From Thermoplasmata archaeon (GTDB taxonomy: Archaea; Thermoplasmatota; E2; JACPAO01; JAHFTW01): a DNA stretch of 64,000 nucleotides. Location: the NCBI GenBank assembly GCA_034667725.1, contig JAXDQS010000003.1, positions 352,001-416,000 of the forward strand, in the 5' to 3' direction. Positions 17,634 to 51,472 of this stretch are shown here, one piece after another; the stretch's first letter is position 1, and each line of letters starts with the position of its first letter. The notes beneath the pieces are model-generated. The model was not told the origin of the DNA, did no database searches, and saw only the letters and a list, made by a program, of their open reading frames with translations. A program made the position numbers and the translations under genes.

Positions 17634-18803
17634 TCAAGGCGCCGGCGTGAAGCGGCCGACTTGGTATTGCGCCGACTTGATGGAGGGGTCCACGAGCGCG
17701 TAGGCAGGCGCCAGCGCCGCGTCCAGGGTCGGGTCGCCGGAGCGCACGAGGGCGGTGGGCAGTGGGTCGCCGGTCTCGGGCGTGTAGGTCCCCGTGAGCA
17801 CCGGCTGGGCCGTGGCCGCGATGGTCTTGGCGACTATCTTGAGCACCAGCTCCTTGCCGGCGGACTGGTGGTCGGGCAGGCCGAGGCCGTTGATGCCGTT
17901 CGGGTAGAGCCCGGGCGCGCCGGGGTCGGGCGTGCGGAACGTGCCGCGGAAGGGAACGGCGTACATCGTGACCGGGATGCCCTGCGCGGCCAGCGTCGCC
18001 TGGAGCTGGGTGCCGTGGTCCGGCGGGACGATGGGGTCGGCGGCCTCGTAGAGCAGGTAGGCGCGGGCCAGGCCGGCGCCGGCCCAGGCCGTCGGGTTGA
18101 GCGCCGGCGACGACGCGACCAGGTCGGCCTCGCGGCCGGCGTAGGCGGCGGCCACGGCGTTCACCAGCGTGATGCCGGCGAGGCAGGCGTTGTTGGAGGT
18201 GGTGACGGTGGGGTCCTTGCACGGGTCGGGCGCCAGCGGGGCGGTGGCCTCGCTCCAGCCGTAGCTCGCGCCGTACACGACGCCGCCGGGCACGAGGGTG
18301 GCGAGCAGCTCGGGGATGTTGCTGGGGCCGACGTCATCGACCAGGTAGTCGGCGAGGCCCGGGTTCTGCATGATGGCCAGCGCGGAGATGTGGCCACCCA
18401 TCGAGGTGCCCCACAGCACGACGCGCGTCAGGTTGGGGCATTGGGCCTGGAAGTCGTGCACGGCGGCGGCCACGTCCTGGGCGCCAGTGAACACCTTGTA
18501 TTCTGTGCTAAGGCCACGGTAGTCCATCGCGACCGCGACGGCGCCGGCGCGCGACAGGGTGGTGAGGGTGCTGCCCATGGTGGATGCCTTGCCGCCGTAG
18601 CCGTGGTTGACCAGGACGAGGGTGTCGCCCAGGTTGGTGGGCCAGGCGTAGAGGCCGGCGGCGGACTGGCCTGCGACCTCCACGTCGTAGGGCTGGGCGA
18701 CGTTGGAGCCGACGCCGAAGCAGCTGACGGCGGTCGAGGCCGACGAGGGCGGAGCGAGCAAGGGCGCAAGTGCTAGCACGGCAAGGATGGGAGCGAACCG
18801 CAT
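17634..18803 (-). CDS. Secreted alpha/beta hydrolase
   Basis: Signal peptide; NHGYGG, GTSMGG nucleophile elbow, DPIVPP. Confidence 0.85.
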   Translation of the reverse strand: MRFAPILAVLALAPLLAPPSSASTAVSCFGVGSNVAQPYDVEVAGQSAAGLYAWPTNLGDTLVLVNHGYGGKASTMGSTLTTLSRAGAVAVAMDYRGLSTEYKVFTGAQDVAAAVHDFQAQCPNLTRVVLWGTSMGGHISALAIMQNPGLADYLVDDVGPSNIPELLATLVPGGVVYGASYGWSEATAPLAPDPCKDPTVTTSNNACLAGITLVNAVAAAYAGREADLVASSPALNPTAWAGAGLARAYLLYEAADPIVPPDHGTQLQATLAAQGIPVTMYAVPFRGTFRTPDPGAPGLYPNGINGLGLPDHQSAGKELVLKIVAKTIAATAQPVLTGTYTPETGDPLPTALVRSGDPTLDAALAPAYALVDPSIKSAQYQVGRFTPAP

Positions 18804-18859
18804 CGCGCGGCAAGGCGGACACCCTCGGAATAAGGATGAGTGGACGTTCTTGTCCATTC

Positions 18860-20608
18860 TCACCAAGCGTACACGACGCTCGTGGCCGTGGCGCCCTGGC
18901 CCGACACTGCCGTGAACACGACCTGCGTCCCCTTGGGCGCGTTGACGCTGCGGGCCCAGGTGCCCCAGTCGGTGCGGGGCAGGTCGTAGGCCGTGGCGCC
19001 GACCGTCGCCGTCACCTTGGCGACCGGCTCGCTGGCGGACACGGTGACCTCGACCCACCAGGCGTTGCCCATCCCCTTGGGCGTGAAGGTGGGCGCGAAC
19101 GGCCCGGCCGGCGCGGGCGCGGGCGCGGGCCCGAGCCACGCCATGGGCTCCGACGCCGCGGCCTGGCCTTGGGCGTTGGCCGCCGTGAACGCCATCATGG
19201 TGCCGCGCACGGCGTGGAAGCTCGCGGCCCACGTGCCCCAGCTGGTCTTCGCGAGCGCGTGGACGACGCCGTCCGCGACGGCGTCCACGCGCACGGGGTC
19301 GCCGCCTTGCACCCGGACGTCCACCCACCACTCGTTGGAGCCGGAGGACACGGTGAAGGCGGGCGGCCAGCCCGTCGTGCCGCCCACGGCCACCGTGCCC
19401 GGGCAGGTCCGGGCGAGCAGGCGGTCGGCGCGCACCAGGCCATGGCCGTAGGTGTCGTCGCGGCCGGCGGCCCCCAGGTCCTCGGCGCTTGCCTGCAGGT
19501 GGCCGACGAGGGTCGCGGCGTCGAGCGTGGGCGCGCACGCCAGCGCGAGCGCCACGGCGCCGGCCACGTGCGGCGCGGAGTAGCTGGTGCCGCCGCCGGA
19601 GCCGTAAGCGCTGCCGGGCCGCAGCACGTCGATGTTCACGCCGGGGGCGACGAAGTCGAGCTGCGGGCCGCGGTTCGACCACGACGCCACCGTCTTGCTG
19701 GCGTCCACGGCGCCGATGGCGAGGGCGTTCGGGTCGGAGGCGGGGTACTTGATGCCGACCTGGCCGTTGTTGCCGGAGCCGGCCACGACCACGACGCCGC
19801 GGTCGCGGGCGTACTTGATGGCGGCCGCCGTCGTCGAGTCGCTGGAGGTGGCGGCCAGGCTGAGGTTGATCACCTTGGCACCTTGGTCGGTGGCGTCCGT
19901 GACGGCGCGCGCCACGTTGGCCATCGAGCCGGTGCAGGCGCCCGTCGACGCGTCCCGGGCCGTCACCTTGAGCGGCAGCAGCGTGGCTTGGGCGATGCCG
20001 GCCAGCCCGACGCCGTTGTTGGTGGTCGCCGCCACGATGCCGGCCACCGCGGTGCCGTGGCCGCAGTCGTCCTCCGGCGTGCCGTCGCGGTGGACGTAGT
20101 CGTAGCCGACCAGCACGCGCGACGCCGCCAGATCCGGGTGGGCCCGGTCGAGGCCGGAGTCGATCACCGCCACCTTGACGCTGGCCGCGCCGTAGCCCGC
20201 GCCGCCGTCCCAGGCCGCGGGGACGCCCATCAAGCGCGGCCCGTACTGGTTCGGGTAGCGCGGGTCGTTGGGGGTCGCAAGGGCCTCCGCGACCCCGTCC
20301 GGCTCGGCGTAGCGCACCTCCGGGCGCTCCTGGAGGTCGCGGCGCGCGGCGGCCGGGTCGGCGTCGCGGTCCAGCTCGACCACGACGGCGTCGAGGGCAG
20401 GCAGGGCCGCAACGACGCGGTGGCCGTGCAGCGTGCCGCCCTCGGCCACCATGGCGTGGCGCTGCAGGCCGACCACCAGAAGGGCGGAAGGGGCGTCTGG
20501 GCGGGCCCGGCCTGCGTCGTCCTGGGGATGGACCGCGACCGCGACCAGCGAGGCCGCCAGCAGCATCCCGACCCAGACCGCCCCCTCGCCCCGACGCACA
20601 GCTGCCAT
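18860..20608 (-). CDS. Secreted subtilisin-like S8 protease with two C-terminal Trp-rich domains
   Basis: VAVIDSG, GHGTAVAG, GGTSYSAPHVAG catalytic triad. Confidence 0.93.
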   Translation of the reverse strand: MAAVRRGEGAVWVGMLLAASLVAVAVHPQDDAGRARPDAPSALLVVGLQRHAMVAEGGTLHGHRVVAALPALDAVVVELDRDADPAAARRDLQERPEVRYAEPDGVAEALATPNDPRYPNQYGPRLMGVPAAWDGGAGYGAASVKVAVIDSGLDRAHPDLAASRVLVGYDYVHRDGTPEDDCGHGTAVAGIVAATTNNGVGLAGIAQATLLPLKVTARDASTGACTGSMANVARAVTDATDQGAKVINLSLAATSSDSTTAAAIKYARDRGVVVVAGSGNNGQVGIKYPASDPNALAIGAVDASKTVASWSNRGPQLDFVAPGVNIDVLRPGSAYGSGGGTSYSAPHVAGAVALALACAPTLDAATLVGHLQASAEDLGAAGRDDTYGHGLVRADRLLARTCPGTVAVGGTTGWPPAFTVSSGSNEWWVDVRVQGGDPVRVDAVADGVVHALAKTSWGTWAASFHAVRGTMMAFTAANAQGQAAASEPMAWLGPAPAPAPAGPFAPTFTPKGMGNAWWVEVTVSASEPVAKVTATVGATAYDLPRTDWGTWARSVNAPKGTQVVFTAVSGQGATATSVVYAW

Positions 20609-20714
20609 TGGCCCGCCCAGGTCCAAGCCACGCCGCTCCGGGCGGCCGAAGGGTGGCCCCCGGGAAGCCCGGCCGCCTTCGGGATGGGTCCGTGGAACCG
20701 GCGGGTCAGCAGCT

Positions 20715-21064
20715 CGACGGCTCACTCCGTCAAACCGCTTCGATGCCCCTTCCGTCTACGGACGGAAGGCCCGGCGCCGCCCTCCGGGCGTGCCTGCACC
20801 CGAGCGACCACGGTCGCTTCGCTGCGCATCGCTCTCATGAATCGCTCAGGTGCCCCTTCCGGCCTGCGGCCGGAAGGTCCGCCGCGGCCCTTCGGGCCTG
20901 GCTGCATCGAACCGGTCGCCGCCCGTTCGCTTCGCTCACTCCGTCAAACCGCTTCGATGCCCCTTCCGGCCTCACGGCCAGAAGGCCCGGCGCCGCCCTG
21001 CGGGCGTGCCTGCATCGAAGCGACCGCCGTCGCTCGCTCCGCTCGCTTCGTCAAGCCTCTTCGA
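20715..21064 (-). repeat. tRNA-linked tandem array: three 107-bp structured units plus a partial fourth
   Basis: The GC that starts each unit on the + strand recurs at 20745, 20852, 20959 and 21066 (the last inside the tRNA 3' end). Confidence 0.9.
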
Positions 21065-21135
21065 TGCACCGTGCGGGATTTGAACCCACGCTGGCGGCTT
21101 GGAAGGCCGAAGTCATACCCCTAGACCAACGGTGC
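21065..21135 (-). tRNA. tRNA-Gly(TCC), no encoded CCA
   Basis: GCACCGTTGGTCTAGGGGTATGACTTCGGCCTTCCAAGCCGCCAGCGTGGGTTCAAATCCCGCACGGTGCA cloverleaf. Confidence 0.95.
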
Positions 21136-21181
21136 GCGGGCGGCGCGACTCAAGCGGTCGCCATAAACCACACGGCCGTGC

Positions 21182-23761
21182 TCACGCCTTCTTCTTGGCC
21201 GCCTTCTTGCTTGCGGCCTTGCGGGCGGGGCGCTTCTTGCTGGGCGCGCGGCCCTCCTTCTCGGCCAGCAGGGCCACGGCCTCGTCCATGGTGACGGCGC
21301 CCACGTCCATTCCCTTCGGCAGGGTGGCGTTGGTGTCGCCGTGCTTGAGGTAGGGCCCGAAGCGGCCGTCGAGGATGCGCACGGGCTTGCCGTCGGCGGG
21401 GTGGTCGCCGACCTCGCGCAAGGCCGAGGCGGCAGCGCGTTGGCCGCGACCGCGCTTGGGCTGCGCGAGCAGGGCCAAGGCTTCGTCCAGGCCGATGGTG
21501 CCCAGCTGGGCCGGCGGGATGCTGCGGTACTCCAGCTTGCCGCCGACGTCGTGGGCGATGTAGGGGCCGAAGCGGCCGAGGCCGACGATGACGCGGCCGC
21601 CGTCGGGGTGCTCGCCCAGCTCCTTGGGGAGGCTGAGGAGGAACAGCGCTTCGTCGAGGTCGGCGTTGTCGGGGGTCTTGCCCTTGGGGAGGCTGGCGCG
21701 CTTGGGCTTGCCGTCGGCGGCGTCCTCGATGGTGCCGAGCTGGTAGTAGGGGCCGAAGCGGCCGTCGAGCACGAAGACGCGCAGGCCGGACTCGGGGTCT
21801 TCGCCGACGACTTGGGGGCCTTCCGCCTTCTGCTTCAGCAGGCGCTCGACGGTGGCTTCGTCCAGTTCGTCGGGGGTGACAGCCTCAGGGAGGCTAGCCG
21901 TGAGCTTCTCGCCGTCGCGCTCCACTTCGATGTAGGGGCCGAAGCGGCCGATCTTGACCTTGCAGGGCAGGTCGCCCAAGTCCACTTCGCGGCCTTCGCC
22001 GGGCGGGATCGACTCGAGGCGTTCCTGGATCTGGGCCTGCAGGCCGTCGGGGCCGAGGAAGAACCCGGTGAGGAACGGGACCCATTCGGCCTCGCCGGCG
22101 GCGATGAGGTCGAGCTTTTCCTCCATCTCGGCGGTGAAGGCGAGGTCCACCAGCTTGGGGAAGTGCTTCTCCAGGAGGCCGACGACGGCGAACGCGGTGA
22201 AGGTGGGGACGAGCGCCTTGCCCTTGGAGGCGACGTAGCCGCGGTTCTGGATGGTGTCCAGGATGGCGGCGTAGGTGCTGGGGCGGCCGATGCGCTCCTC
22301 GACGAGGGCCTTGACCAGGCTGGCTTCCGTGTAGCGCGCCGGCGGCTTGGTCTCGTGGCCTTCGGCGGCGACCTCCTTGCATTCCGGCTTGTCGCCTTGC
22401 TTGAGCGGGGGGAGGCTGCCTTCCTCGTCCTCGGTGGCGCCGTAGGCGGCGCGGTGGCCGGCGAAGTCGACGCGCTTGCCGCTGGCGGTGAAGGTGGCGT
22501 CGAGCGCCTGCAGGGTGACGGTCGTGGCGGTGAAGCGCTCGTTGGCCATCTGCGACGCGAGGGTGCGGGCCCAGACGAGGCGGTAGAGCGCCAGGTCGAT
22601 GCCGGCCAGGCCGGTGCGGTCGGGGTGCTGGAACTCGGCGCCGGCGGGGCGGATGGCCTCGTGGGCCTCCTGGGCGCCCTTCTGCTGCTTGCCGGCGTAG
22701 TCGCGCGGCTGCGGGTGCAGATAGTCGGCCCCAAACTCGGCACGCACCGCGGCCGCGGCGCCCTTCTGGCCTTCCTCGCTGAGGGCCGTCGAGTCGGTCC
22801 TCATGTAGGTGATGAACCCGTTCTCGAACAGCCGCTGGGCGGCCTGCATCGCCTGCTTGGCGCTGAGGTTGAGGCGGTTGTTGGCCTCCTGCTGGAGCGT
22901 GCTGGTGACGAACGGCGGCTGCGGGCTGCTCTGGCGCTGGGCCTCCGTGACCTCGGCGACCTTCCACGGCGCCTTCCTGAGGGCGGCCTGGAGCGTCTTG
23001 GCCTGCGCCTCCTCCAGCAGCAGGACGTCCTTGCCGGCGGCGAGCTTGCCCGTGTCGGGGTCGAAGTCCTTGCCGGTGGCCAGCCGCTTGCCGGCAAGGG
23101 CGACCATGCGTGCCTCGAACGGCCCGCCCTTGACGAGGCTCGCGGTGAGGCCCCAGTAGGCGCCGGCGCGGAAGGCGCGGCGCTCGCGCTCGCGCATCAC
23201 CACAAGGCGCACGGCGACCGACTGGACGCGGCCGGCGCTGAGGCCGCCGCCCACCTTCTTCCACAAGAGCGGGGACAGGGCGTAGCCGTAGAGGCGGTCG
23301 AGGATGCGGCGGGTCTCCTGCGCCTGCACCAGGTTGAGGTCCAGTTCGCGCGGCTTGGCGAGCGCCTTCAGCACGGCGTCCTTGGTGATCTCGTTGAAGA
23401 CCATCCGGCGCACGGGCACCTTGGGCTTGAGGGCCTCCACCAGGTGCCAGCTGATGCTCTCGCCCTCGCGGTCCTCGTCGGTGGCCAGGAACAGCTCGTC
23501 GGCGTCCTTCAGCTTGGAGCGCAACTCTCGCAGCACCTTCTCCTTGCCCGGGATGGTGACGTAGTAAGGCTGGAAGCCGTGCTCGATGTCCACGCCGTAG
23601 TCCGCCCACGGCTTGCCCTTGATCTCGGCCGGGATGACCGCCTTGCTGGTGGGCAGGTCGCGGATGTGGCCGACGCACGAGTCGACGACGTAGCCCTTGG
23701 GGAGGTAGCCCTGGATCTTCTTGCTCTTCGTCGGGGATTCCACGATGACGAGTTTGGGCAT
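21182..23761 (-). CDS. topA: DNA topoisomerase I, bacterial type with GRFGPY C-terminal repeats and a Lys-rich tail
   Basis: LVIVESPTK, ATDEDREGE, SAGRVQS, ITYMRTDS, AHEAIRP, GRPSTY; four GRFGPY repeats. Confidence 0.97.
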   Translation of the reverse strand: MPKLVIVESPTKSKKIQGYLPKGYVVDSCVGHIRDLPTSKAVIPAEIKGKPWADYGVDIEHGFQPYYVTIPGKEKVLRELRSKLKDADELFLATDEDREGESISWHLVEALKPKVPVRRMVFNEITKDAVLKALAKPRELDLNLVQAQETRRILDRLYGYALSPLLWKKVGGGLSAGRVQSVAVRLVVMRERERRAFRAGAYWGLTASLVKGGPFEARMVALAGKRLATGKDFDPDTGKLAAGKDVLLLEEAQAKTLQAALRKAPWKVAEVTEAQRQSSPQPPFVTSTLQQEANNRLNLSAKQAMQAAQRLFENGFITYMRTDSTALSEEGQKGAAAAVRAEFGADYLHPQPRDYAGKQQKGAQEAHEAIRPAGAEFQHPDRTGLAGIDLALYRLVWARTLASQMANERFTATTVTLQALDATFTASGKRVDFAGHRAAYGATEDEEGSLPPLKQGDKPECKEVAAEGHETKPPARYTEASLVKALVEERIGRPSTYAAILDTIQNRGYVASKGKALVPTFTAFAVVGLLEKHFPKLVDLAFTAEMEEKLDLIAAGEAEWVPFLTGFFLGPDGLQAQIQERLESIPPGEGREVDLGDLPCKVKIGRFGPYIEVERDGEKLTASLPEAVTPDELDEATVERLLKQKAEGPQVVGEDPESGLRVFVLDGRFGPYYQLGTIEDAADGKPKRASLPKGKTPDNADLDEALFLLSLPKELGEHPDGGRVIVGLGRFGPYIAHDVGGKLEYRSIPPAQLGTIGLDEALALLAQPKRGRGQRAAASALREVGDHPADGKPVRILDGRFGPYLKHGDTNATLPKGMDVGAVTMDEAVALLAEKEGRAPSKKRPARKAASKKAAKKKA

Positions 23762-23905
23762 CCAGGGCTCCGCGGGGTCGGCCGACGCCGGGTGTGCCGG
23801 AAAACCCTTCGCCCGCGGGCCGGCATTGCGCACCCCCCGTAGGGGGGTGTCGCGTTCGCCGGCGGCTGCCAAGCTTCTTGACGCCCGGGCGGGGTGGGTC
23901 GCGGC

Positions 23906-24241
23906 ATGGCCGAGCAGCTGACCTTGGATGCGATCGAGACCCGCGACATCGCGGAGGACCGGCTGGAGGTCGCCACCGTCCTGCTGGAGGCGGTCTTGGC
24001 GGCCGGCTTTCGAGCGCGGCGGCCCGACCTCGAGCTGGGCCACTTCGAGTTCACCGACGGCCAGGCCAAGGACCACGTGGTCACGGTTGACCTGGTGGCG
24101 TTGGGCCCGAAGGCCACGCGCGCCGTCGTGATGTCGCGCATCCTGTGGGGGCCGAAGCACGCCAACTTCACGAGCGCCCAGCGCAACGGCGACAATGTCC
24201 AGCGCGTCGTGGCCTTGATGGCGCGCTGGCCGAAGGCGTAG
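23906..24241 (+). CDS. Hypothetical protein (111 aa)
   Basis: Host-like codon bias; divergent from topA. Confidence 0.65.
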   Translation: MAEQLTLDAIETRDIAEDRLEVATVLLEAVLAAGFRARRPDLELGHFEFTDGQAKDHVVTVDLVALGPKATRAVVMSRILWGPKHANFTSAQRNGDNVQRVVALMARWPKA

Positions 24242-25854: not shown

Positions 25855-26072
25855 GGTCTCGGTGGATTCCTGAGAACTCTGTGGAATCTGTGTCCAGCCG
25901 GCGGCCGACGGGCACCGATTTCCCCAGATTCGGAAGATTCCCACAGAGGTCTGTGGAGTCTGTGTCCAGCCGGCGGCCCGCGACGAGCACTGATTTTCCC
26001 AGATTCGGAAGATTCCCGCAGAGGTCTGTGGAATCTGTGTCCAGGGGGCCGCTCTGTGGAGTCTGTGTCCAG
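25855..26072. repeat. Mosaic palindromic repeat cluster A (~75-bp units)
   Basis: CGACGRGCACYGATTT-CCCAGATTCGGAAGATTCCCRCAGAGGTCTGTGGARTCTGTGTCCAG tandem units. Confidence 0.92.
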
Positions 26073-30162: not shown

Positions 30163-30191
30163 GCCTCCTTCGTTTGTCTCGGTGCGGCGCG

Positions 30192-30497
30192 GCGGGCACT
30201 GATTTACCCAGATTCGGAAGATTCTCGCAGAACTCTGTGGAATCTGTGTCTAGTTGCGGCGACGGGCACCGATTCGCACAGATTCGGAAGATTCCCACAG
30301 AGGTCTGTGGAATTTTTTGGCTAGGCCCCGCCAGAACCAAAGTCAGGGTCTGTGGAATCTGCGTCCAGTCGGCGGCCCCGCGACGAGCACTGATTTCCTC
30401 AGATTCAGAAGATTCCCACAGAAATCTGTGGAATCTGTGTCCAGTCGGCGGTGAGGCGTCGCCCACCCATCCCCCAAACCCACCGGGGACCCCGAGC
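30192..30497. repeat. Mosaic palindromic repeat cluster C
   Basis: Core units plus TTTTTGGCTAGGCCCCGCCAGAACCAAAGTCAGGG module and CCAGTCGGCGGTGAGGCGTCGCCC end. Confidence 0.92.
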
Positions 30498-35661: not shown

Positions 35662-36022
35662 GGTCGGTGTCCTCGGTGGCGACGCCTCACCGCCGACTGG
35701 ACGCAGATTCGGCAGAGTTCTGTGAGAATCTTCTGAATCTGAGGAAATCAGTGCTCGTCGCGGGCCACCGACTGGACACAGATTCCACAAATCTTCTGTG
35801 GGAATCTTCTGAATCTGAGCGAATCGGTGCCCGTCGGGTGACCGACGCACACAGATTCCACAGACCCTGACTTTGGTTCTGGCGGGGCCTAGCCAAAAAC
35901 TCCACAGGGTTCTGTGGGAATCTTCCGAATCTGGGGAAATCAGTGCCCGTCGCGCGCCGCCGACCGGACACAGATTCCACACAAAGTTCCGAGGGAATCC
36001 ACCGAGGGCACCGCGACCGACC
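35662..36022. repeat. Mosaic palindromic repeat cluster D (reverse orientation) with inverted ends
   Basis: Core units plus invariant module; CGGTGTCCTCGGTGG (35665) and CCACCGAGGGCACCG (35999) are a 14/15 inverted match. Confidence 0.92.
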
Positions 36023-43141: not shown

Positions 43142-44032
43142 ATGTCCGCAGCGCAAGCAGTCGATCCGTTCCCGTACGGCCGCGATCCCTGGTGGGGCAA
43201 GGCGCTCATCCTCACCATCGTCATCCTGCCGCTGTTCGCCCTCGCCTACGCGGCGTGGCGCTGGTGGGGCCACGGCGTCACCGGCCTCGAGGTCGGCCTC
43301 CTGCTCGGCCTGTGGGCCTTCACGGGGCTCGGCATCTCGGTCGGCTTCCACCGCATGGTGACCCACCGCGCCTTCGTCGCCAAGCCCGCCGCGCGCGCCG
43401 TCCTGCTCTTGGCCGGCACCATGGCGGTCGAGGGCCCGCCCTCCGGCTGGGCGGCGACCCACCTGCGCCACCACGCCATGGCCGACCGCGACGGCGACCC
43501 GCACAGTCCGCTCGAAGGGTTCTGGCACGCGCACTTCGCCTGGATGCTGCGCGACCGCATGGTGCACGGCGGCCTGGCGCACGACAAGCTGATGCGCGAC
43601 CCCGTGGTGGCGTTCTTCTCGCGCACCTGGATCTTCTGGACCTTCCTCTCGTTCCTGCTGCCCGCCCTCGTCGGGCTCGCCGTCCACGGGACCTTCTGGG
43701 GCATGGTGGACGCCTTCGTCTGGGGCGGCCTGCTGCGGATTTTCCTGCTGCACCACACCACCTGGGCCGTCAACTCCATCGGCCACATGTTCGGCACCCG
43801 CCCCTACCGAAGCCCCGACCGGGGGGCCAACAACGCCATCGTCGCCGTGCTGGGCTGGGGCGAAGGCTGGCACAACAACCACCACGCCTTCCCGCGCGCC
43901 GCCTACATCGGGATGCGCTGGTACGAGTTCGACCCCGGCCGCTGGGTCATCCAGCTCCTCAAGGCCTTGGGCCAAGTCGAGCATGTTTGGAACCCGACGC
44001 CGGAGGAGCGGGCGCAAAGGCTGCGGGCGTGA
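43142..44032 (+). CDS. Delta-9-type membrane fatty-acid desaturase
   Basis: His boxes HRMVTH, HLRHH, HNNHH; DPHSP; GEGWHNNHH. Confidence 0.93.
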   Translation: MSAAQAVDPFPYGRDPWWGKALILTIVILPLFALAYAAWRWWGHGVTGLEVGLLLGLWAFTGLGISVGFHRMVTHRAFVAKPAARAVLLLAGTMAVEGPPSGWAATHLRHHAMADRDGDPHSPLEGFWHAHFAWMLRDRMVHGGLAHDKLMRDPVVAFFSRTWIFWTFLSFLLPALVGLAVHGTFWGMVDAFVWGGLLRIFLLHHTTWAVNSIGHMFGTRPYRSPDRGANNAIVAVLGWGEGWHNNHHAFPRAAYIGMRWYEFDPGRWVIQLLKALGQVEHVWNPTPEERAQRLRA

Positions 44033-44033
44033 G

Positions 44034-44440
44034 CCGCCGACTGGACCCGGATTCCACAGAGTTCTGTGGGAATCTTCCGAATCTGAGGGAATCAGTGCCC
44101 GTCGCGGGGTCGCCGACCGAACAAAGATTCCGCAGAGGTCTGCGGGAATCTTCCGACTCTGAGCGAATCGGTGCCCGTCGGGTGGCCGACGCACACAGAT
44201 TCCACAGACCCTGACTTTGGTTCTGGCGGGGCCTAGCCAAAAAATTCCACAGATCTCTGTGGGAATCTTCCGAATCTGGGAAAATCAGTGCCCGTCGCGG
44301 GCCACCGACTGGACACAGGTTCCGCAGAGTTCTGTGGGAATCTTCTCAATCTGTGCGAATCAGTGCTCGTGGCGGGGCCGCCGGCTGGACGCAGATTCCA
44401 CAGAGTTCTAGAGGAGTCCGCCGAGGGAACCGAGACGAGC
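44034..44440. repeat. Mosaic palindromic repeat cluster E (largest)
   Basis: Four to five core units plus invariant module at 44197-44243. Confidence 0.92.
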
Positions 44441-51302: not shown

Positions 51303-51472
51303 TTCGGTGGTCTCGGTGCCCTCGGTGGATTCCCTCTGTGTCTAGTTGCGGTCCGCGACGAGCACTGATTCGCACAGATTCAGAAGATTCCCACAGAACT
51401 CTGCGGAATCCGTGTCCAGTCGGCGGTGAGGCGTCGCCCCACCAATCCACCGAAACCACCAAGGACACCGAA
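51303..51472. repeat. Mosaic palindromic repeat cluster F with 29-bp inverted ends
   Basis: 51303-51331 and 51444-51472 are a 23/29 inverted match flanking one core unit. Confidence 0.9.

Follow-up and report, generated by a model that had tools for sequence, protein, structure and literature searches.

The repeat array behind the tRNA-Gly(TCC) gene in the DNA analyzed here (64,000 nt from a Thermoplasmata archaeon; this whole stretch is referred to as the window) is probably a stack of three gene-free, self-folding mini-cassettes, belonging to a type of ~80–125-nt element that is specific to one uncultured family of Thermoplasmatota. Each cassette follows the same plan: a copy of the 3' end of the target gene (X), a loop containing GAGCGNAGCGA, an inverted copy of that end (X') that forms stem 1 with X, a short hairpin 2, a longer and variable hairpin 3, and a G run, after which comes X_old, the displaced end of the resident gene. 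The cassettes lie on the strand of the gene that they target. Based on comparison of sequences among loci and genomes, we infer that they are, or recently were, mobile DNA.

The genome (2.32 Mb in 26 contigs, 71% G+C, 90% complete) encodes an RNase P RNA of the archaeal type, which scores 107.9 bits and passes the Rfam threshold, and none of the bacterial type, so a bacterial origin, which the bacterial-type topA described below could suggest, was rejected. On the minus strand of the window, the order is topA, tRNA-Gly(TCC), the repeat region, and a subtilase gene (Table 1). The topA gene (21182–24160) encodes a bacterial-type topoisomerase I, here in an archaeon, with four Toprim_C_rpt repeats and a lysine-rich tail. 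The tRNA is the sole TCC glycine tRNA found in the 90%-complete assembly. Anchor words at 21070, 20963, 20856, and 20749 on the minus strand bear out the exact 107-bp period that a preliminary description of this DNA had noted behind the tRNA; TRF reports a 108-nt period with 3.3 copies and 74% matches. The full units have their first bases at 21067, 20960, and 20853, and a fourth, partial copy starts at 20746, consisting of 27 nt that match the start of unit 2 and then passing into unique sequence. The units had been described as starting from the terminal GCA of the tRNA. This holds for unit 1, in which the last 3 nt of the tRNA (21065–21067) double as the first 3 nt of cassette 1, but the stretch common to the units and the partial copy is 27 nt long (GCA plus 24 nt of trailer). 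Since X at this locus comprises the terminal GCA and 24 nt of trailer, the final three bases of tRNA-Gly(TCC) now come from cassette 1. Stem 1 was also thought to sequester the tRNA 3' terminus, an effect that would be marginal, as only 3 nt of the tRNA are in this stem.

Table 1. Features of the tRNA-Gly(TCC) locus, in window coordinates.
Feature	Position	Strand	Basis
topoisomerase I (topA), upstream neighbor: Toprim, Topoisom_bac, four C-terminal repeats	21182..24160	-	Pfam
TATA-like AT-rich word, ~29 nt upstream of tRNA 5' end	21161..21167	-	sequence reading
tRNA-Gly(TCC), no encoded CCA	21065..21135	-	ARAGORN; Rfam RF00005, 60.4 bits
cassette 1, 107 nt	20961..21067	-	fold; R1 100.7 bits
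cassette 1, target-end copy X	~21041-21067	-	
cassette 1, stem-1 5' arm	21055-21067	-	
cassette 1, loop motif	21034-21044	-	
cassette 1, inverted copy X'	21012-21024	-	
cassette 1, hairpin 2	20987-21009	-	
cassette 1, hairpin 3, then terminal G run	20962-20984	-	
cassette 2, 107 nt	20854..20960	-	R1 98.8 bits
cassette 3, 107 nt	20747..20853	-	R1 92.1 bits
displaced resident end X_old, 27 nt	20720..20746	-	nhmmer partial match, model positions 1-27
subtilase (Peptidase_S8), downstream neighbor	18860..20608	-	Pfam PF00082, 1.8e-45

The three window units form a mosaic. X is common to cassettes 1 and 2, hairpin 2 is common to cassettes 1 and 3, where it is nearly identical, and the hairpin-2 flanks of cassette 2 are unlike those of the other two. 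Compared with cassette 1, cassette 3 has three double compensatory changes in stem 1, and no donor for this divergent stem was found in the 32 genomes of the family. The displaced native end is identical to the first 27 nt of cassette 2; it runs on into non-repeat sequence and pairs with it, giving a hairpin that extends to ~20705 and contains three G·U pairs.

The TATA-like word upstream of the tRNA is, from its sequence and position, a candidate archaeal promoter of tRNA-Gly(TCC). By reading of the sequence, no run of four or more T occurs between the tRNA and the subtilase gene, and given this lack of an oligo-T tract after the tRNA, transcription from the tRNA promoter probably continues through the array. 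The array is thus probably co-transcribed with tRNA-Gly(TCC), in which case its hairpins would form in RNA as well. In this DNA of 71% G+C, the array is also crossed by mechanical ORFs (18860–20725 on the minus strand and 18770–21124 on the plus strand). The likely ATG of the subtilase (20606–20608) is in frame with the minus-strand ORF, which reaches 20725 inside the repeat; as this ORF extends 39 codons upstream of the likely ATG, into cassette-derived sequence, automatic annotation may mis-start the subtilase.

The same three hairpins form in every full unit (~−62 kcal/mol), in agreement with the three stems per unit described previously, and the compensatory differences between units in stem 1 and hairpin 3 are likewise present. 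The loop motif GAGCGNAGCGA occurs in the window units as had been reported, slightly changed in unit 3. Folding of the array region gives −247 kcal/mol on the sense (tRNA) strand (z −6.25 vs shuffles) and −216.6 kcal/mol on the antisense strand (z −4.33 vs shuffles), so the sense fold is better by 30 kcal/mol. Six units from four genomes, when aligned, have double changes in 16 of 32 predicted pairs. Conservation of the structure survives in a larger alignment of 49 sequences, obtained by building a covariance model (R1) and searching genomes with it. In these 49 aligned hits, standard pairs occupy 92.7% of cells, compared with 62.5% in shuffled alignments and 35–41% with slid partners, covariation is found in 32 of 32 pairs, and both-side changes number 398 cells vs 98 in shuffles, all of these pairing counts being inflated somewhat by the fit of the alignment to the R1 model. 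Stem 1 is paired in 94% over the 49 units. G·T pairs outnumber A·C (51 vs 11), an excess that indicates that the folding strand is the gene-sense strand of the upstream gene.

The loops are also of recurrent types. Hairpin 2 is closed by a GNA triloop in 34 of 48 units, and the mini-hairpin of the loop mostly has a GNA triloop too; triloops of this kind are known mainly from DNA, where they are very stable. Hairpin 3 is variable; it has a CTTG or GNRA loop in 19 of 49 units, and 20 of 49 have loops of the stable RNA tetraloop classes CUUG, GNRA, or UNCG. Tandem G·A pairs in the loop motif suggested a K-turn/L7Ae site, which reading of the sequence rules out, as the required 3-nt bulge is missing. 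The likeness of stem 1 to a minihelix mimic for RNase P or RNase Z stems from the palindromic TGCA at the tRNA end. The preliminary description took pairing that persists despite sequence change to imply selection on structure. The compensatory change itself holds, but much of the covariation in stem 1 comes from each unit carrying forward and inverted copies of its own target end, so that it cannot simply be taken as a sign of conserved RNA function.

R1 was built from six units that include the three of the window, which consequently reach their scores of 92–101 bits partly by construction; independent matches elsewhere score up to 94.7 bits. The model has ~95 matches in 28 of the 32 genomes of the archaeon's family (f1). 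At E ≤ 1e-5, it matches 12 of the 32 f1 genomes, this one included, and none of the 89 genomes of nine sister families of the same class (f2–f10). Among the 49 aligned hits, 15 begin 2–4 nt before a tRNA 3' end, with Gly-TCC, Gly-CCC, Glu-TTC, Glu-CTC, Leu-GAG, and Leu-TAG as targets, while 21 have the stop codon of an upstream ORF (at least 100 codons) within their first 30 nt. All tRNA-end and ORF-end hits are on the strand of the upstream gene, and the remaining hits are inner tandem units or are located near contig ends. Two R1 units of this genome lie behind protein genes; one further hit (C2:44841-44936) was treated as false, being without the cassette motifs and having no gene end at its start. 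A tRNA-targeting element, one of the candidates put forward previously, is close to the evidence, but the family is not restricted to tRNAs, as its units are also found where protein genes end.

BLAST and nhmmer searches with the window units found no copy in this genome beyond this locus, and pattern scans of metagenomes found no further copies of it. A motif scan of the genomes of 185,579 species recovered the full pattern mainly in Thermoplasmatota metagenome-assembled genomes (MAGs). Matches in Natronococcus, an Actinomycetota MAG, Nocardia, and a Planctomycetota MAG proved to be other GC-rich repeats; as these have only the short motif in common with the cassettes, they are no evidence for the family outside the lineage. 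The word GAGCGNAGCGAGCGGAC is found inside other tandem or hairpin repeats in Actinomycetota MAGs (L108, L115, L116, L107), Nocardia (L112), and Natronococcus (L104, L111, L122). Its presence in unrelated high-GC bacteria and haloarchaea looks like the recurrence of a stable hairpin word, rather than common ancestry.

Related units occur at other tRNA 3' flanks, a place where the preliminary description had suggested looking. At least 10 of the 46 other tRNAs in this genome (Asn, Thr-TGT, Tyr, Pro-GGG, Leu-TAG, Lys-CTT, Leu-CAG, Arg-CCT, Lys-TTT, and Thr-CGT, on contigs C3, C4, C5, and C10) are each followed by one to three units of 83–177 nt ending in a copy of the tRNA's own 3' end. The copy matches exactly over 14–28 nt in eight of these tRNAs and over 7–8 nt in two. 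In the cases examined, an inverted tRNA-end copy is found upstream of the direct copy, with two G+C-rich hairpins between them. tRNA-Leu(CAG) is followed by three tandem units. At tRNA-Tyr, the duplication also takes in the pyrimidine tract behind the tRNA.

Among relatives, compared as species-level representatives only, cassettes are present at 6 of 17 orthologous tRNA-Gly(TCC) loci, in one to three copies and two registers, and absent from the other 11. Four genomes (this one, G006, G011, and G016) have one to three window-like units, and two (G004 and G005) have a variant that ends in an 18-nt tRNA-end copy. Rfam 15 returns only tRNA matches in the region 19500–22500 at E ≤ 1, and only tRNAs window-wide at gathering scores, so the proposed search of Rfam gave no match to the units. 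The lack of units at 11 of 17 orthologous loci, together with this lack of an Rfam match, argues against a conserved tRNA-linked RNA gene. In G005 (L041), ~110–230 nt downstream of tRNA-Gly(TCC), there is a 5'-truncated copy of this tRNA with a ~60-nt insert of two hairpins inside its anticodon loop, flanked on both sides by cassettes that end in 18-nt tRNA-end copies; tRNA loops, too, can therefore hold the hairpin insert.

The displaced ends of protein genes bear on how the cassettes arrived. In nine clean coding cases, the peptides encoded by the X that the cassette carries (X_new) and by X_old are identical or almost so, with 30 synonymous and 3 non-synonymous codon differences between the two ends; in one case, seven of eight codons differ, all synonymously. 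Because the differences are almost exclusively synonymous, X and X_old must both have been working gene ends while they diverged. The pattern favors a cassette that would have come from another lineage together with its X over a duplication of the target that later decayed. As X is non-coding at the tRNA-Gly(TCC) locus, this argument rests on the other loci. Pairing of X' with the X of the same unit holds at 118 of 127 positions, compared with 100 of 127 for the downstream X, and this better fit indicates that the inherited unit spans X to the G run.

Similarities among cassette bodies at different targets suggest that cassettes were copied from one target to another. G019 has cassettes at tRNA-Leu(GAG) and tRNA-Leu(TAG) that differ in X and in the loop but have almost the same sequence between the end of X' and the following X (~72 nt). 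In G006, the cassette at tRNA-Gly(TCC) and one at a protein gene have an identical hairpin-3 stem. The two members of a tandem pair at L091 are near-identical, with bodies 98% identical. Overall, body similarity is slightly higher within genomes than between them (0.698 vs 0.671), a value reached by 31 of 2000 permutations.

In the movement that we propose, a cassette would bring a replacement end with it and insert at the 5' border of the resident X. Conceivably, a folded single strand, with stem 1 mimicking the target duplex, would swap one strand with the target, and replication would then fix the insertion. The target would be set by homology, unlike in the fixed-site recombination of CTXphi and integron attC. 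It is possible, although we hold it only tentatively, that the cassettes are a new class of mobile DNA, in which gene-free units of ~100 nt use their folded forward and inverted target-end copies as a guide, enter conserved gene ends by single-strand exchange through host recombination or repair or an unrecognized protein instead of a transposase of their own, and leave rows of displaced ends. No Y1 transposase (no PF01797 match), reverse transcriptase, or Cas1 was found in the 90%-complete genome. There is one weak tyrosine-recombinase match (Phage_integrase, 24–27 bits), on another contig and unlinked to any cassette. This gene (G000:C10:27530-28180; ~2530–3181 of L129) is the only one of its kind in the genome, and its end overlaps tRNA-Pro(TGG) on the opposite strand, an arrangement typical of an integrated element. 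Comparison of species-level representatives yielded no empty/filled pair within one species and no excised form.

We found no description of such elements, and no published name, in the literature. Mobile endonuclease ORFs of fungal mitochondria carry the C-terminus of the host gene. In yeasts, WHO homing elements, which encode their own endonuclease, substitute a new end for that of FBA1, and relic ends stay behind (PMC7282813). The WHO elements are the closest functional parallel to the cassettes: as with the mitochondrial elements, a new, recoded 3' end is brought in, the old end is left downstream, and rows of relic ends result. However, both kinds of element are kilobases long and encode an endonuclease, whereas the cassettes are ~107 nt, contain no ORF, include an inverted target-end copy, and are also found at tRNA genes. 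A WHO-like or other endonuclease-driven homing element is ruled out by units of 107 nt without an ORF.

A folded single-strand hairpin acts as a recombination partner in integron attC cassettes and in CTXphi attP(+) with XerCD (PMC3089051). The cassettes are similar in their stacking in one orientation, in G·T pairing that points to one functional strand, and in the hairpin as partner, as proposed for them here. They differ from integrons in having no integron-type core sites at their borders and no genes; no IntI was found in the genome, and a sequence-specific recombinase would not accept a stem that, as here, takes on a new sequence at every target. An integron cassette array at this locus is ruled out, as the neighbors are topA and a subtilase gene, the borders are a G run followed by GCA, and there is no ORF. 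A CRISPR array is ruled out as well, since the whole 107-nt unit is repeated, variation is spread along the unit, and there is no Cas1.

The cassettes have several properties in common with REP/BIME sequences, MITEs, and Rickettsia palindromic elements: all are short and non-coding, form hairpins, occur in multiple copies, and are specific to a lineage. Unlike the REP and MITE types, the cassettes have no fixed terminal inverted repeats, no fixed-length target duplication, and no Y1 (RAYT) enzyme, and they are placed exactly at gene 3' ends and carry a copy of the gene end. We rejected derivation from a MITE or IS, as the terminal stem is target-specific, the repeated target segment varies from 3 to ~28 nt and is often recoded, and a Y1 transposase is lacking. 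A REP/BIME system with RAYT was also rejected: there is no PF01797 match, and nhmmer finds the sequence family solely at this locus in the genome. As BLAST likewise finds the units only here, they are not REP-like at the sequence level. Integrative elements that target tRNAs encode an integrase, have an att core of at least ~15 nt in the tRNA, and restore the tRNA with element-borne sequence. The cassettes likewise have a tRNA 3' end as insertion site and complete the tRNA with insert-borne sequence, but here 3 nt of the tRNA are involved, and ends of protein genes are used too. The array does not consist of the att repeats of such an element, as only the GCA of the tRNA is repeated and there is no integrase or remnant of one between the tRNA and the subtilase gene.

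A different reading is that the units are primarily functional RNA: structured 3' trailers, transcribed together with the tRNA here and with mRNAs elsewhere, that would act as terminators, as blocks to 3' exonucleases, or as precursors of small RNAs freed by tRNA processing, this last being the main idea of the preliminary description. We judge this reading unlikely, although much of the evidence is compatible with it. The covariation in the 49-hit alignment is strong, the sense strand has the excess of G·T over A·C pairs and the more stable fold, 20 of 49 hairpin-3 loops are of stable RNA classes, every hit with an assignable upstream gene is on that gene's strand, and the trailer lacks a T run that could end transcription before the next gene. 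However, a functional RNA would not be expected to be missing at most orthologous loci and to vary between one and three copies where present, nor to have a stem 1 whose sequence is set by the end of the neighboring gene and is not conserved. This reading also leaves unexplained the displaced gene ends that were once coding, and the GNA triloops of hairpin 2 and the loop mini-hairpin, being chiefly DNA-type loops, as well as the lack of an Rfam match, speak against it. An RNA role and cassette mobility could both be true, and a selected RNA function, as a 3' stabilizer or terminator, could maintain the features of the cassettes.

There are two further explanations. In one, integrase-borne elements repeatedly integrated and decayed at the tRNA 3' end, leaving tiny remnants that could be mobilized only in cis. 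The location of the array, the direct repeats of the target end that flank each unit, the att-like 14–28-nt copies at other tRNA ends in this genome, and the tyrosine-recombinase gene that adjoins tRNA-Pro would fit such accretion. We nevertheless consider it improbable, as the tRNA repeat here is only 3 nt, the same units are found behind protein genes with recoded ends, and every unit has an inverted target-end copy, a feature that is not generated by att accretion. Moreover, the units are only ~100 nt long, their internal layout is conserved from one unrelated target to another, and no remnant of an integrase adjoins them. In the other, replication went wrong locally, through fold-back or a switch of template at short hairpins, giving a forward-inverted-forward trailer that was then duplicated in tandem, with no mobile element involved. 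ODIRA, in which fold-back or closed-fork replication errors give rise to inverted triplications, yields kilobase amplicons with junctions from local inverted repeats (PMC4689423). The X, X', X order of the cassettes is that of an inverted triplication, their junctions also form hairpins, the tandem pair at L091 is near-identical, and no enzyme was found. Yet the cassette junctions are not local repeats but a consensus common to many loci and genomes, which argues against purely local errors: the loop motif, hairpin-2 flanks, and G run are conserved across dozens of unrelated loci in ~28 genomes. In addition, the three window units are a mosaic, not simple duplicates, and the many synonymous differences between X_new and X_old imply separate histories. 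We therefore regard an origin by local error as very improbable.

If the cassettes are mobile as proposed, this archaeal family would harbor selfish or semi-domesticated DNA that matches no described class, having no gene, no fixed ends, and no fixed target, yet being placed with precision at the ends of essential genes. Such gene ends would have been rewritten without loss of function; at the locus described here, the final three bases of the one TCC glycine tRNA found in the assembly come from an insert. This would raise the question of how ~100 nt of folded DNA is targeted and inserted. It would also bear on the annotation of tRNA and gene 3' ends in high-GC archaeal MAGs, and the stacks of displaced ends would be a natural record of exchange between lineages.

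Other small inserts or repeats are found near the cassettes and elsewhere in the window. The last cassette is often followed by four target-end bases and then by a stand-alone hairpin of ~22–28 nt with a GCGC..GCGC core (L026, L029, L055, L058, L059, L062, and L102), which may be a second, smaller type of insert or part of the outer border of the cassette. A second, unrelated repeat family (D1, D3, D5, D6, and D14), with units of ~75–130 nt, is found in the window at 25903–26069, 30187–30469, 35684–35981, 44028–44424, and 51353–51444 and has no Rfam match at gathering scores over the whole window. Its G+C content is clearly below that of the genome, and its copies occur in both orientations, often in pairs 75 or ~190 nt apart.
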